Source: a virus
Strand: one strand, 5' to 3'
Length of the DNA stretch: 15,158 nucleotides
Virus genome (UHGV): UHGV-1773351
In this document: positions 4,124 to 8,839 of the stretch, piece by piece
How positions within the stretch are numbered: position 1 is the stretch's first letter
How the letters are laid out: every line of letters starts with the position of its first letter
The notes under the pieces: generated by a model
The model's input: only the letters and a program-made list of their open reading frames with translations
What the model was told of the DNA's origin: nothing
The model's database searches: none
Program-made: the position numbers and the translations under genes

Positions 4124-4720
4124 TTAAGCCTTGTCAACAGAGACTTGAGCGGCTTTTATGGATAGATTCCCGCTGGCCTCTATCGCCATACTTCCCCCCG
4201 CCTTCAGGGAGACATCCGCGCCTGACTTTATATCGAGATTTCCTGCGGAAGAGATGAATGCCGGACCTTGAGAAATGGCATATAACTCCCCGGCCTCGTT
4301 GAACCCGATTGTTGTTCCACTTTTCAAGTGCGTAACGGCCCAGGCTCCGCCCGCCGTCCGGATCTCCATTAGTCCGTTCCGCGACGAAATAAAGTCTTTT
4401 TTGGCGCTGGTTGATGGTTGTGCTGGTGCACCTTCAACTTCAGGCGGTACATTGGGAGCGCCACCGGATGCATCCTGTGCATAACCGATTATCAATGGCC
4501 ATCGCGAATCCCCATTGTAGGGAAATTCTACCCATACTTTATCGCCGGGCAGAAATGGTGAAAACGTGTTTGCATTGGACAATATAGCTTCTGCCCACGG
4601 CAATGAGGCATCTGGTAACCCATCCATCATGCCGACAACACGTATTTGTGTACGCATCAGACCTTTAGGGTCATCGACGCTTATCACTACAGCCCGATAC
4701 TTCCCTGTCAAACTACCCAT
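4124..4720 (-). CDS. OB-fold baseplate spike-like protein (Mu gp45 / P2 gpV type) with a C-terminal Gly/Ser-rich repetitive segment
   Basis: AGGAG 6 nt upstream of the ATG. N-terminal pattern [25 protein letters not shown] resembles the gp45/gpV OB domain; C-terminus [36 protein letters not shown] is beta-helix-like. Overlaps the upstream gene by 8 nt. Confidence 0.65.
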
Positions 4721-5729
4721 TCACCACTCCTAACTGTGCACGGCTGACAAAACGAAAGCGGTCTTCGAAATGAGTCACGGACATCACTATCATTTTGTCA
4801 GGGATAGATTCATCGAGTTCTCCGTCACCTGCCGTGTTATGCACGACAATTTTCAGCGTCGTACCCGGAGTTAGCGCGGCATTTCCTTCCACCAGCATAT
4901 CGAGGCGGGGGAGAATGAATTTGTTGTAGTTCGCCAGCGCGGTAGGATCGGGATTGCTCGTAAATTTAATGGGGTCTTGCTGGTTACCTGAGTAAACCAC
5001 ACCTTTGGTCATGTCATAACTGGCCATTCTGTAATTGTGGCGGCGCTGGTATTCATAATCGGCATTCAGGATGTTGAACTGACTAATTGTAAATCCGGAT
5101 GTGTTGGGATTGGCGGACTCATAAGTAAGCGATGGAGCTGCGTTTGCCATTTTTTCCATACTTTTAAAATTGATCGTCCCCCTGGATGCCCAGCACATAG
5201 AACCGGTATCCCGGGCTATCTCCTGCAATACCTTGGTCGGTTTTTCTCCAACATTTAGGTGGTATGTGGATGTTTTTCTGAATGAGTCAGCATTTACCTT
5301 CAGACCAGGGGCAAGAGAGGAAACTACGGCTGATGGGGGCTTATCAACAAAATACTGTGCGCTGGTGGACGGAACTTTTAATAACCGCACCGGGTTACTA
5401 AACGCGTAAATCAGTACAGTATCGTTCTTGCGTGGCGCTTTAAGAACAAAGAACTCTTCCGAGAAGAGGATGCCGCCATGACCTTCCGGATCACCAAGTG
5501 AAACTGTCATTATTGTCCCAAATTTCACCCCCAGCTTATTGACCACGTAAGCCGTTGAATCCCTGACCATGAGCATAAGCTGGGGACCAGATAGCTCCCC
5601 AGGTTCGACATAGGTACATCCTACGATCATTTCGCGAGGGATTTCGTTCTGCCCAATTGAAACAGATTGCAGGAATAGCTGAGTGCGTTTTGAATCAGTT
5701 TCCGGGGCTGTGGTGGTCTTTGTGGCCAT
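4713..5729 (-). CDS. hypothetical protein (338 aa); possibly a hub-like partner of the spike protein
   Basis: GGAGG 7 nt upstream of the ATG; tightly packed with flanking genes. The hub assignment is inferred only from its position directly upstream of the spike-like gene. Confidence 0.7.
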
Positions 5730-5730
5730 C

Positions 5731-6534
5731 TCATTCCTCCAGAATTTTCGCTTTTACCGTTATGGTGCCGGTGGTTTGCTGCATATAAGCCAGGATAGGA
5801 AGTTCCGCCACAACGGTGAGGTTCAATCCAACCGCGAACAGCCTGTTGTCGGCGGTGCCGGTGGTCAGATCCTGAAATGCGATTGATTTTTGCCCTTCTA
5901 TGTAACAGGTAACCGGTATCTCATAACCGCCGACATTGGCAATGTGAGTGAAAGATGCCTGCCCGAGGCTGGCATACATTCGTAGCCAGAATGCTAATGC
6001 AGTTGTAACCATCCCAAGAGATTCCTTCTCGTCACTGGCGATCCATAGCGAATATTCCAGTGAGAAAGGGATAGTCGATACCAGGGCTTCAATCTCATCA
6101 TTTTCATTGGTGACATGCCCTTCATCGTAATTATCCCGGCACAGTTCACCTTCATAAATTGAAAACGCGGGAGAACGAGACAGATTCACAAGCGGCATTG
6201 CCAGCTTATTTACTGGGCCAGCAGAGGCTGTATCTTTGCGCCCGGCGCGAGCGGCTTCAAATGACGACAACCACTCCTTCACATCACTAAAAGTGCCGAG
6301 CGTTATGCGATCTCTTGGTGTGCGTTTCAGGAACTCCCTGAATGACTGGTTAGTGCGATCATTAAAGCTGACAACTTGTGAGTCGAATGCTTCGTTTAAA
6401 GCCTGTGCGAGCGCCGAATCAATGCCATCAATAGTGGCAAATTCCAGCTTACCGGTTGGAGTAAGACCTTTTTTCTTAAAGATGGCCAGTAGCCATTCCT
6501 GATTATTCAGAATCACCGATGAAATTCCCTTCAA
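5731..6534 (-). CDS. hypothetical protein (267 aa)
   Basis: ORF-track start is a TTG at 6534 with no Shine-Dalgarno. An in-frame GTG at 6516 has AAGGGA 9 nt upstream and may be the true start. Lies inside the leftward operon. Confidence 0.65.
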
Positions 6535-7231
6535 AGGCGCGTGAAGGCACGCAATAAAACAAACTGCCTACCCTGGCAGTGCCGTAATTGAATATTTTAT
6601 GGATGTACCAGAAGCGGCGAATGGTTGTGCCGTCTGACAGCTGTTCCAGCCATTCGAGCATAGAACCTACTGGCACATTAACGGCGGCTAACCGAAGGAT
6701 TAAAGCACAGTCGCTAATTCCCGTATTATCACTGCCGTCGTATAGCGCGTAGAAGGCGTCCATCTCATCCGGGCAGTCGAGGGCCGTTATCAGTTCTGGA
6801 TCCTGATAGTCATATATGCGTTGGTTCGGTTCTATTATTTCAGATGCCGTTTCAGGTGCATTTTTGTCTCTGTAAGGTATTGCGCGATACAGAACTGCAT
6901 CGAATGAGTCAGGGTCTAGCTTGATTGCTTTGAGCCAGTCCATCCGCACAAGGTTATTAAAAACTGCATGACCTTGATAACGGTGGCGCACACCAGAATC
7001 ACTAAGCAGGCCGTGATCCAGATTGGGAAGGTGATTGTCCTCCACAGGATCAACAATATTACCAACGTTAACACCATCGGTTTCGATTTCAGCATCAATA
7101 TCTTCCTCTTCAATCAGTTCAGAACCTTCGCCTGGAATATCCGGATCCGATTCGGTGTCCGGGAGGTTATCACCAGTCACTTGTTGTGATGGTTCTGTGT
7201 CCTCAAACATGTCATCAAAGAAACCAGCCAT
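6503..7231 (-). CDS. hypothetical protein with a strongly acidic N-terminal region (242 aa)
   Basis: GGAAAGGA upstream of the ATG. The first ~70 residues are Asp/Glu-rich ([48 protein letters not shown]). Confidence 0.7.
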
Positions 7232-7234
7232 CGA

Positions 7235-8452
7235 TTATCCTTTCCGTTTACGGGCTTCGTTAATTTGTGTCTCAAGAATGCTTCGCGCCTGCGCGGTGGC
7301 AGCGGCCTTGTCCATTCCCTGACTCATGAAAAACTTTATGAGGTTGTTCGCCTGCGTTTGCAGGGCTTTTTTGAGAGCGTCGGCTTCAGCGCGAGCTTGG
7401 GCTTCCCTCACCCGCGATGCTTTTAGTTCGGCATTCTTCCTGTTTGCCGTGGTGCGAGCTTTTTTTAACAACCGGCGAACGTTGTCCGTGGCGCTATCTT
7501 TGGCGCGTAGTTTTTTGCCTAATGCATCCTGAGATTTCAGATATAACTCATACTCACGCGCCGCTTTAGCCTGATCCGTCGTTGTTGTCCGGTTGCGCGC
7601 GAGTGATTTAGCCAGTTCGCCTTTGAAATAGGTTGTTGTCTTCCGCTTGTCATCGCCGAAGGCCACCTGTTCAGCTGCTTTTTCCAGGGCAATAATGATG
7701 GCCTTGTGCCATGTGGGAGACTGAAAACGCGTCATAGCGTGCAATACATGTTTGCAGGCTACACCAGTCAGATCAGGGTTGCGGATCTTGGGGAATGCAT
7801 ACTCTTTTGGCGGCGCGACAGCATAGTTACCAGCCGTGGCCATATAACGATACCAGTATTGATGGCGTCCACAATCACAGTCGAAAGATACCCGGCCCTT
7901 GCAGAGATCGGCAGCGATTCGGGCTTTTTTCGCACCGTCTTCAGCAATTTCCTCAACGGCTTTATCCCATTCCTCAAATCGAATTCTGACACGATGATGC
8001 TGGTGGACCGACTCATCCGAGGCATTAACAGATATCAATGCAAGGTTGTGTTTTAGCCCGAGGAATGTCGCGGCTTTGATCCCTGTGCCATCAGAAACTT
8101 TGTTGTTAGCGCGTTTTATATCAATGCTGGTGGACTGCGCCACCAGCTGAGCATAGGTAATGCCGGGTACCGTGCTCTTGAATTTGGTTTTATGAGCCTG
8201 CCTTGAGGTGTTGAAACTGCGTATATCTTCGGGCGTAAAGTAGGTGCCATCTTTCTTTTTCCCAAGGCTGAGGAATGCCTCAAGTTCGCGGTTACGCATC
8301 CCCATAATCTTTGGGGTGAGTGTACGCCGCGCGTTTCGCCGATTCTGACGCTGCTGTTTACGGATAAGATCGAAGACCTTGTTAAAGTCTTTTGCACTTA
8401 ATCCATCGGTCTGATAGCGACCAAGGTTGTCGCGAGCATATTTAGTTGGCAT
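7235..8452 (-). CDS. basic, coiled-coil-rich protein with a SWIM-like zinc-finger motif (405 aa)
   Basis: AAGGGA 5-6 nt upstream of the ATG. Lys/Arg-rich N- and C-terminal regions. Central FDCDCGRHQYWY ... VACKHVLHA gives a CxC-xn-CxH arrangement. Confidence 0.7.
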   Translation of the reverse strand: MPTKYARDNLGRYQTDGLSAKDFNKVFDLIRKQQRQNRRNARRTLTPKIMGMRNRELEAFLSLGKKKDGTYFTPEDIRSFNTSRQAHKTKFKSTVPGITYAQLVAQSTSIDIKRANNKVSDGTGIKAATFLGLKHNLALISVNASDESVHQHHRVRIRFEEWDKAVEEIAEDGAKKARIAADLCKGRVSFDCDCGRHQYWYRYMATAGNYAVAPPKEYAFPKIRNPDLTGVACKHVLHAMTRFQSPTWHKAIIIALEKAAEQVAFGDDKRKTTTYFKGELAKSLARNRTTTTDQAKAAREYELYLKSQDALGKKLRAKDSATDNVRRLLKKARTTANRKNAELKASRVREAQARAEADALKKALQTQANNLIKFFMSQGMDKAAATAQARSILETQINEARKRKG

Positions 8453-8461
8453 TCAATTCCC

Positions 8462-8839
8462 TTACGCAATGGATAATGTCCCTATTACCTGGCCGTCATA
8501 TTGGAAATGGCGAATCATTTCGCGGATCCAGGTGGCAGGTGGGAGTTTTAATTTTTTGCCAACAGTCATACCCTGAAACTCATCCTCAAGCCCGGCGGCG
8601 AGCGTCACAACCCATCGTAGCTCTGCTATGCCCCACATACGGTAAGCCAGCAAATCCGGGCGATATTGCTCATCGGGAAGAACGTAATAAATCGTCAGAT
8701 TCTTGTCGTTCGATTCACACATAAGCATCACCTCTTTGCGCAGCTCTGCCCTGAGTATTGGATCGGCTATGTTGCGGTCGTCATACCGCGACAGAGGATA
8801 TTGCCGGGTGCTTTGGGTTGTAGTGATTGATGTAGCCAT
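8462..8839 (-). CDS. hypothetical protein (125 aa), first gene of the leftward operon; possible LysM-like fold
   Basis: ORF with ATG at complement of 8837-8839. The segment YYVLPDEQYRPDLLAYRMWGIAELRWVVTLAAGLEDEFQGMTVGKKLKLP loosely resembles LysM / tail-X-type domains. Confidence 0.6.
   Translation of the reverse strand: MATSITTTQSTRQYPLSRYDDRNIADPILRAELRKEVMLMCESNDKNLTIYYVLPDEQYRPDLLAYRMWGIAELRWVVTLAAGLEDEFQGMTVGKKLKLPPATWIREMIRHFQYDGQVIGTLSIA

Follow-up and report, generated by a model that had tools for sequence, protein, structure and literature searches.

We found that the six leftward genes lying between positions 8839 and 4124 of the window (the whole 15,158-nucleotide stretch of DNA that was analyzed) are the late operon 26-25-7-24-6-5 of a P1-like phage-plasmid, an identification that gene identity, layout, and structure matches place practically beyond doubt. 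The window is ~98% identical at the DNA level to P1 and RCS47 and belongs to a P1-like phage-plasmid (Punavirus); P1-family genomes align with it collinearly, at 98.2 to 98.4% identity across 91 to 98% of its length. The genes stand in the P1 order, which is the same in AF234172 and RCS47, and each of the six products carries one to five substitutions relative to its P1 counterpart, with gp5 additionally lacking 12 residues. Five of the six (gp26, gp7, gp24, gp6, and gp5) match chains in solved P1 virion structures, and the operon is therefore neither a pure baseplate cluster nor a set of effectors; it holds central baseplate parts together with those that seal the tail at its upper end. A Pfam scan of the six proteins gave subthreshold matches only, for gp26 and gp5. 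Where each protein sits in the virion, and in how many copies, is taken from the literature rather than from this analysis.

The sequence-only reading had described a leftward six-gene operon ending in a spike protein, and this is what we found. It had also named P1 genes 5, 6, 7, 24, 25, and 26 for comparison; all six products mapped onto them, an outcome that it had itself set against its proposal, and the novelty that it implied is therefore gone. Its suggestion of a scattered P1-type baseplate subcluster was essentially right, because the region is P1's own operon, but of the six products only gp26, gp6, and gp5 belong to the baseplate, gp7 being a stopper and gp24 a terminator.

Table 1. 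Genes and control elements of the operon, by position in the window
Feature	Position	Strand	Basis
C1 repressor operator O26, ATTGCACTAATAATTTT on minus strand	8912..8928	-	Mapped from AF234172 annotation (L001 9082-9098, offset 170)
Late promoter LP26	8869..8887	-	Mapped from AF234172 annotation (L001 9039-9057)
Gene 26, baseplate plug (T4 gp53-like), six copies	8462..8839	-	P1 gp26 identity, PDB and PHROG matches, literature
Gene 25, basic 405-aa protein, CxC-x38-CxH (SWIM-like) site, "tail stability"	7235..8452	-	
Gene 7, hexameric stopper of portal-adaptor-stopper connector	6503..7231	-	P1 gp7 identity, PDB match, literature
Gene 24, hexameric tail terminator (T4 gp15-like)	5731..6516	-	P1 gp24 identity, PDB match, literature
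Gene 6, trimeric baseplate hub (T4 gp27/Mu gp44-like)	4713..5729	-	P1 gp6 identity, PDB match, literature
Gene 5, trimeric central spike (OB-fold + beta-helix), 198 aa	4124..4720	-	PDB, Pfam, and PHROG 430 matches
Terminator hairpin, directly past gene 5 stop codon	4098..4124	-	Folding

Promoter, operator, and terminator

LP26 (late promoter) and O26 (C1 operator) bound the operon upstream, and a terminator hairpin bounds it downstream (Table 1). The O26 bases are identical to those of P1. LP26 has a -10 element (TAGAAT, 8869-8874) and a 9-bp -22 box (8879-8887) that is common to the divergent late promoter LPpmgL; both elements are P1 identical, with one substitution between them. Taking promoter function from the P1 annotation, we infer that in this element leftward transcription is regulated at, and starts from, the Lpa-dependent LP26, which adjoins the C1 repressor operator. 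The hairpin after gene 5 has an 11-bp stem (GAAAAGCCCGG/CCGGGCUUUUC) followed by UGUU (dG -18.1 kcal/mol, z -2.55); it was not listed by a consensus terminator scan and was confirmed instead by folding. Transcription of the operon would end at this hairpin, which separates gene 5 from the convergent dbn and may work bidirectionally. Translation of the six genes would be coupled through the short gaps or overlaps between them; gene 24 has a GTG start and overlaps gene 7 by 14 nt.

In P1 (AF234172/NC_005856; also RCS47, P7, and SJ46), the genes, their order and spacings, LP26, O26, and the convergent dbn are all as they are here. The left flank differs, in that the window has an SPFH lipoprotein gene where P1 has tciABC; RCS47 resembles the window in this respect.

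gp25 and its CxC/CxH site

The only product of the operon without a match to a solved P1 virion chain is gp25, which is weakly detected in virions and unplaced in cryo-EM maps (PMC9024508; PMC12810830). Its C-terminal region consists of long helices. Sequence and profile searches of the PDB with gp25 returned coiled-coil noise only, and a Foldseek search of the PDB with the full gp25 model returned nothing below E 0.3. Residues C192, C194, C233, and H235 (CxCxnCxH) are invariant in 36 sequences of 40 to 83% identity, and the relatives in ABMM1 and Rb1 retain them too. The label of SWIM-finger protein given to gp25 from its sequence agrees with this invariant CxC-x38-CxH site but not with the Pfam family: PF04434 (SWIM) did not match gp25 at E <= 1, and in a Pfam scan of the 36 homologues, which gave only scattered coiled-coil noise, SWIM was absent among the 25 most frequently matched of 63 families. 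Canonical SWIM spacers are ~6 to 25 residues long, and that of gp25, at 38 residues, is longer and likewise sets it apart from SWIM zinc fingers such as ZSWIM8; a structural match of gp25 to a solved SWIM domain had a high rmsd.

When the six P1 proteins were compared with distant loci (tblastn), only gp25 was found, and the genes downstream of its homologues in ABMM1 and Rb1 showed no similarity to P1 gp7 (BLASTP). With few exceptions, the hits of a locus search with gp25 alignments were near-identical prophages of the P1-like or ABMM1-like kind.

We infer for gp25 a role alongside gp26, either as an assembly factor that binds zinc (SWIM-like) or as a low-copy, nonsymmetric component of the tail or baseplate. 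More broadly, we suggest, tentatively and with some doubt, that gp25 belongs with its relatives from P1-like, Acinetobacter, and Xanthomonas phages to an undescribed family of zinc-binding, SWIM-like, coiled-coil proteins on which the stability of contractile tails would depend. These proteins would act as an assembly factor partnering gp26 or as a low-copy, nonsymmetric virion component. If the latter were the case, gp25 would have been removed from the cryo-EM maps by averaging.

It is unlikely that gp25 instead corresponds to T4 gp2, a head completion factor that protects DNA ends, although the T4 arrangement (3<-2<-4 beside 53->5) resembles P1 24/25/7 beside 26/5, gp25 is very basic, and its homologue in phage Rb1 sits among head genes. 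The gp25 family profile aligned with T4 gp2 at an hhalign probability of 0.1%, on which the analogy was rejected at the sequence level, and the two proteins fall in different PHROG families; moreover, the conserved neighbor of gp25 homologues is a baseplate gene, and the annotated genetic phenotype is tail stability, not DNA loss.

Baseplate parts and the head-tail joint

The first product, gp26, is identical to P1 gp26 at 124 of 125 residues and matches PDB 9ay5_S/9vzk "Gp26" (E 1.8e-81) and PHROG 1269 "baseplate wedge subunit" (E 1.5e-39); a match to Pfam Phage_gp53 (E 0.062) fell under the cut-off, and the Pfam scan gave no LysM match. In P1 this protein is the plug that attaches the wedges to the hub (PMC12810830; bioRxiv 10.1101/2025.07.21.665459). 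Six copies would plug the space that separates hub from wedges and would keep the baseplate periphery attached to the center until the tail contracts. The product of gene 6, which had no Pfam match, is identical to P1 gp6 at 333 of 338 residues and matches PDB 9vzk_1 "Gp6" (E 6e-225). The literature gives its fold and oligomeric state as those of a trimeric hub (PMC9024508; PMC12810830), which would close the distal end of the tube.

The label "gp45/gpV-type" that the sequence-only reading had attached to the last gene fits the function of gp5, which matches PDB 9vzk_q "Gp5," the nearly identical P1 protein solved as the spike, in two stretches (E 9e-125) as well as PHROG 430; VgrG/Afp8-type chains align to its residues 9-195, and Pfam Phage_base_V, the profile for the N-terminal OB-fold domain, aligns to residues 8-80 (profile 1-73 of 75; E 4.4e-4; 21 bits against a cut-off of 23.8 bits). 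The protein is 198 aa long, versus 210 in P1, because 36 nt are missing in frame from the linker (P1 residues 91-102), a rare deletion the junction of which was not found in an exact search of viral contigs; it otherwise differs from P1 gp5 by a few substitutions. Its residues 87-198 match residues 99-210 of the solved P1 Gp5, and the C-terminal trimeric beta-helix needle (11 layers of three beta-strands in the published structure) is thus present. No lysozyme family matched in the Pfam scan of the 198 residues, and P1 gp5 likewise lacks a lysozyme domain, the muralytic domain being carried by the tape measure Sit (PMC9024508; PMC12810830); gp5 therefore belongs to the spike class outside the T4 lysozyme subtype. 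The P1 protein ends as a plain beta-helix capped by UpfC (PMC12810830), and a gp5 trimer on gp6 would form the membrane-piercing spike, with the cap encoded elsewhere.

That gene 5 encodes a true gp5/VgrG-type spike is what lends some color to the proposal that the six genes are virion-injected effectors riding on a spike scaffold. We consider this highly improbable for the operon as a whole, since for five of the six products the place in the P1 virion has been solved and is that of an ordinary structural part, none of the six has a toxin, enzyme, or PAAR-linked cargo domain (Pfam, PHROG), and the P1 gp5 tip is the plain, UpfC-capped helix just described. For gp25 alone, its basic character, zinc finger-like motif, weak detection in virions, and absence from the cryo-EM maps make an ejected DNA- or protein-binding role possible, and to call gp25 a virion-injected effector is speculation.

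The remaining two products belong to the other end of the tail. At 239 of 242 residues gp7 is identical to P1 gp7, and it matches PDB 9ums_B "Gp7" (E 3.7e-164); the P1 protein is a hexameric stopper ring, positioned under the adaptor, that docks on the tail terminator (PMC12810830). The product of gene 24 (259 of 261 residues identical to P1 gp24) matches over residues 1-261 PDB 8jan_y "Gp24" (six chains; E 1.4e-170), the tail terminator, which sits at the end nearest the head (PMC9024508; PMC12810830). The gp7 hexamer would thus close the filled head beneath the adaptor and dock on gp24, the hexamer of which would terminate tube and sheath at their proximal end. The old genetic labels (in AF234172, "baseplate" for gp5 and gp26, "baseplate or tail stability" for gp24, and "tail stability" for gp7 and gp25), together with the PHROG label of "baseplate protein" for gp24, would assign every one of the six products to the baseplate and make the operon a pure baseplate submodule, a view that is hardly credible and is ruled out by the solved structures of gp24 (8jan) and gp7 (9ums).

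Related contractile tails and the meaning of the operon

The products of the operon would be contractile-tail parts sited at both tail ends. The sheath, tube, wedge, tape measure, and fiber genes lie in other P1 operons, the tail genes outside this operon being scattered over the P1 genome (PMC9024508). Like the T4 gp5-gp27-gp5.4 spike, P1 has an OB-fold and triple beta-helix in gp5 and a gp27-like pseudohexameric hub in gp6, and gp26 is likewise T4 gp53-like and located between hub and wedge; HHpred related P1 gp5, gp6, and gp26 to their T4 counterparts at 99.7%, 99%, and 98.9%, respectively (PMC9024508). P1 differs from T4 in carrying its muralytic domain on Sit instead of on gp5 and in having a "simple" type of baseplate, without counterparts of T4 gp9-12. 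Mu (gp44 hub, gp45 spike) and P2 (gpD, gpV, gpX), likened to P1 by parts, combine a hub with an OB-fold spike and a small plug protein just as P1 does, and it is the Mu names that the P1 papers have adopted (PMC12810830). Whereas Mu and P2 have a contiguous tail and baseplate module, the P1 hub, spike, and plug genes share an operon with the stopper and terminator genes.

The operon is already known, having been described genetically since the 1980s, annotated in the 2004 P1 genome, and resolved structurally since 2022, and, apart from gp25, the finding is an ordinary one because five of the six proteins have solved virion structures. What is gained is a set of cleaner labels, which from gene 26 to gene 5 read plug, unknown, stopper, terminator, hub, and spike. 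P1-like phage-plasmids are common (gene 5 is present in 481 of 5,426 complete Escherichia coli genomes), and their annotations still perpetuate "baseplate," "tail length," and "tail stability" from the older scheme. Among the products of the operon it is gp25 that stands out, in that few other P1 virion-associated proteins lack, as it does, a place or a role.

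The six genes are the late operon of phage P1

A megablast search with the whole window returned P1-family phages, with identities of 98.4% to RCS47, across 98% of the window, and of 98.2% to P1 itself, across 91%. The annotated P1 record (AF234172) holds the same six genes in the order 26, 25, 7, 24, 6, 5, with the late promoter LP26 and the C1 operator O26 upstream, a second late promoter, LPpmgL, divergent from LP26, and dbn convergent on gene 5; the arrangement in RCS47 is that of the P1 record. The window has six minus-strand ORFs running from 8839 to 4124 (125, 405, 242, 261, 338 and 198 aa), spaced by +9, +3, −14, +1 and −8 nt, with a purine-rich Shine-Dalgarno-like motif ahead of every start codon. 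The layout as described from the sequence alone was therefore accurate. For the fourth gene, 24, we took the GTG at 6516 as the start rather than the more upstream TTG of the mechanical ORF list; it agrees with the P1 annotation and with the 261-residue chain of PDB 8jan. The control elements are collected in the table, the hairpin lying between the convergent genes 5 and dbn.

Relative to P1, there is one substitution in gp26, three each in gp25 and gp7, two in gp24 and five in gp6, and gp5 combines a single substitution with the loss of 12 residues. All six products thus map onto those of P1 genes 5, 6, 7, 24, 25 and 26, an outcome that the sequence-only reading had itself named as counting against it. 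We concluded that the six genes are, in the strict sense, the late operon of P1, with every testable defining feature present. As the P1 operon and these comparisons are published, the feature is already known.

Coordinates and structural matches of the operon, its control elements and the ABMM1 gene pair
Feature	Coordinates	Structure matched (E value)	Remark
Gene 5 (gp5)	4124-4720	PDB 9vzk_q (9e-125)	Deletion junction near 4440-4455
gp6		PDB 9vzk_1 (6e-225)	
gp24		PDB 8jan_y (1.4e-170)	
gp7		PDB 9ums_B (3.7e-164)	
gp26		PDB 9ay5_S and 9vzk (1.8e-81)	
LP26 -10 hexamer, TAGAAT	8869-8874		Same bases as P1
LP26 -22 box	8879-8887		Same bases as P1
C1 operator O26	8912-8928		Same bases as P1
Hairpin, 11-bp stem	Starts at final base of gene 5 stop codon		dG −18.1 kcal/mol, z −2.55
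ABMM1 pair	4299-5709 of the ABMM1 locus (L003)		92-aa gp26-like gene (PHROG 1269) and 376-aa gp25-like gene (PHROG 4315/1722)

The window outside the operon

At 504-1331 (+), a lipoprotein gene with an SPFH/Band 7 domain (Pfam E 1e-30) replaces P1 tciA-tciB-tciC, as it does in RCS47, and accounts for most of the stretch that P1 leaves uncovered. ARAGORN called a tRNA-Met with anticodon CAT at 1359-1434 (+); the matching position of the P1 record is annotated trnI (tRNA-Ile2, CAT). At 9234-12535 (+) lies the divergent pmg (putative morphogenetic) operon, in which several genes look enzymatic, not structural: weak matches link PmgM to a VRR-NUC nuclease and both PmgO and PmgP to MptE-like proteins, RCS47 annotates the PmgO counterpart as a sialyltransferase and PmgQ as a glycosyltransferase, and the P1 record labels Ppp a phosphatase. 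Many genes of the pmg region proved dispensable in published knockouts. Similarity to P1, RCS47 and most relatives stops at 14867; through the remainder (14868-15158), vB_EcoM-673R5 alone among the listed records aligns to the window's end. There may thus be a variable junction behind pap, close both to the C1 operator OpmgT and to the region for which the P1 record remarks a similarity to sequence downstream of hsd loci.

Roles of the products in the tail

Five of the six products have their counterparts among the chains of solved P1 virion structures. In these, gp6 is the trimeric hub, gp5 the trimeric spike with a UpfC cap and gp26 the six-fold plug by which the wedges are held to the central part; the portal-adaptor-stopper connector has gp7 as its hexameric stopper, which docks on gp24, the hexameric tail terminator (PMC12810830; bioRxiv 10.1101/2025.07.21.665459). 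Earlier proteomics and HHpred work, which described the tail genes of P1 as scattered over the genome, had already relabelled gp6 from “tail length” to a hub like T4 gp27 or Mu gp44 and likened gp24 to the terminator T4 gp15, gp5 to the OB-fold and beta-helix of T4 gp5 without its lysozyme, and gp26 to T4 gp53 (PMC9024508). Our family scans, as far as they reach, agree with the published roles: PHROG assigns all six products to “tail” families, Pfam Phage_base_V scored slightly under its cut-off against gp5, and Phage_gp53 gave a subthreshold match to gp26.

The operon provides parts for both ends of the contractile tail, namely, the hub, spike and plug at the distal end and, at the proximal end, the terminator together with the stopper, which connects the filled head with the completed tail; it would be expressed late, alongside the other morphogenetic operons. 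In function, the hub, spike and plug set is the P1 version of that of simple contractile baseplates (Mu, P2 and the T4 inner baseplate), to which the P1 operon adds the terminator and stopper; the T4 spike has a lysozyme, whereas the P1 version does not, and Mu and P2 distribute the genes differently.

The absence of tube, sheath, wedge and fibre genes from the cluster, correctly reported from the sequence, reflects the fact that P1 keeps them at other loci: the wedges PmgA, gp16 and BplA, the tube proteins BplB, Tub and PmgG, the sheath gp22, the tape measure Sit and the fibres S, R and U (PMC9024508; PMC12810830; bioRxiv 10.1101/2025.07.21.665459). The proposal of a scattered, P1-type baseplate subcluster holds insofar as this is the P1 operon itself but needs correcting as to content, since gp7 and gp24 are a stopper and a terminator; the operon is neither a full baseplate module nor purely baseplate. 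The alternative of virion-injected effectors carried on a spike scaffold is unsupported, because we found no effector-like domain in the five assigned products (gp26, gp7, gp24, gp6 and gp5).

The gp5 linker and gp25

At 198 aa, gp5 in the window is shorter than the 210-aa P1 protein through a 36-nt in-frame deletion of P1 residues 91-102 (VPPEASGQGEGY), which lie in the linker joining the OB-fold to the beta-helix. The lost segment has, in P1, a 13-nt direct repeat, GT(G/A)CCGCCTGAAG, on either side. The long form occurs in P1 and RCS47; a gap of at least 12 residues relative to the window's gp5 was present at all 76 P1-like IMG/VR loci where gene 5 was found, and in E. coli RefSeq the matches of the best 8 of 483 records span 633 nt in two pieces. 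The linker deletion is rare.

The sixth product, gp25, carries the genetic label “tail stability” in the P1 record. Two of its peptides were detected in purified virions, with no HHpred match above 50% (PMC9024508), and neither cryo-EM study places it (PMC12810830; bioRxiv 10.1101/2025.07.21.665459). We found 478 homologues at E ≤ 0.001, mostly of ~400 aa among the matches listed, many of them on contigs of roughly 80 to 130 kb, the size of P1-like phage-plasmids, with hosts including Enterobacterales, Vibrio and Photobacterium. In an alignment of 36 sequences (40 to 83% identity), C192, C194, C233 and H235 are invariant and form a CxC-x38-CxH pattern, with a conserved FPKIRNP loop between its halves. 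The SWIM finger proposed from the sequence thus stands as a motif but not as family membership: Pfam gave no SWIM match to gp25, SWIM is absent from the most-matched Pfam families of other family members, and a PDB search found no sequence relative, so that we accept “SWIM-like” as a motif-level description. In an AlphaFold2 model (pLDDT 82, pTM 0.70), the N terminus forms a basic helix, the core is a beta-sheet and ~110 residues at the C terminus make up long helices.

Distant relatives were found by tblastn in Acinetobacter phage vB_AbaM_ABMM1 and Xanthomonas phage Rb1 (35 to 37% identity over the core). In ABMM1 the gene immediately upstream shares its PHROG with P1 gp26 (1269, E 4e-34), and the 26-25 adjacency is thus preserved over a large distance; in Rb1 it is lost, the homologue lying between a gene for a 948-aa protein and the capsid gene. 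The ABMM1 pair lies near the terminase gene, its gp25 core is only ~36% identical to that of P1, and IMG/VR contains ~80 near-identical prophage contigs.

The P1 operon also resembles the T4 neighbourhood 3<-2<-4 | 53->5 (2925-7187 of the T4 locus, L006), where genes 3 (tail terminator/sheath stabiliser), 2 (DNA end protector) and 4 (head closure) lie divergent, beside 53 and 5. This order gave rise to the idea that gp25 occupies the position of gp2, which we rejected at the sequence level, as profile comparison found no link between the two (0.1% probability). We infer, with rather low confidence, that gp25 could be a zinc-binding assembly factor or a low-copy, nonsymmetric tail or baseplate component linked to gp26. 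What remains of value in this operon is gp25 and the rare gp5 linker deletion only.
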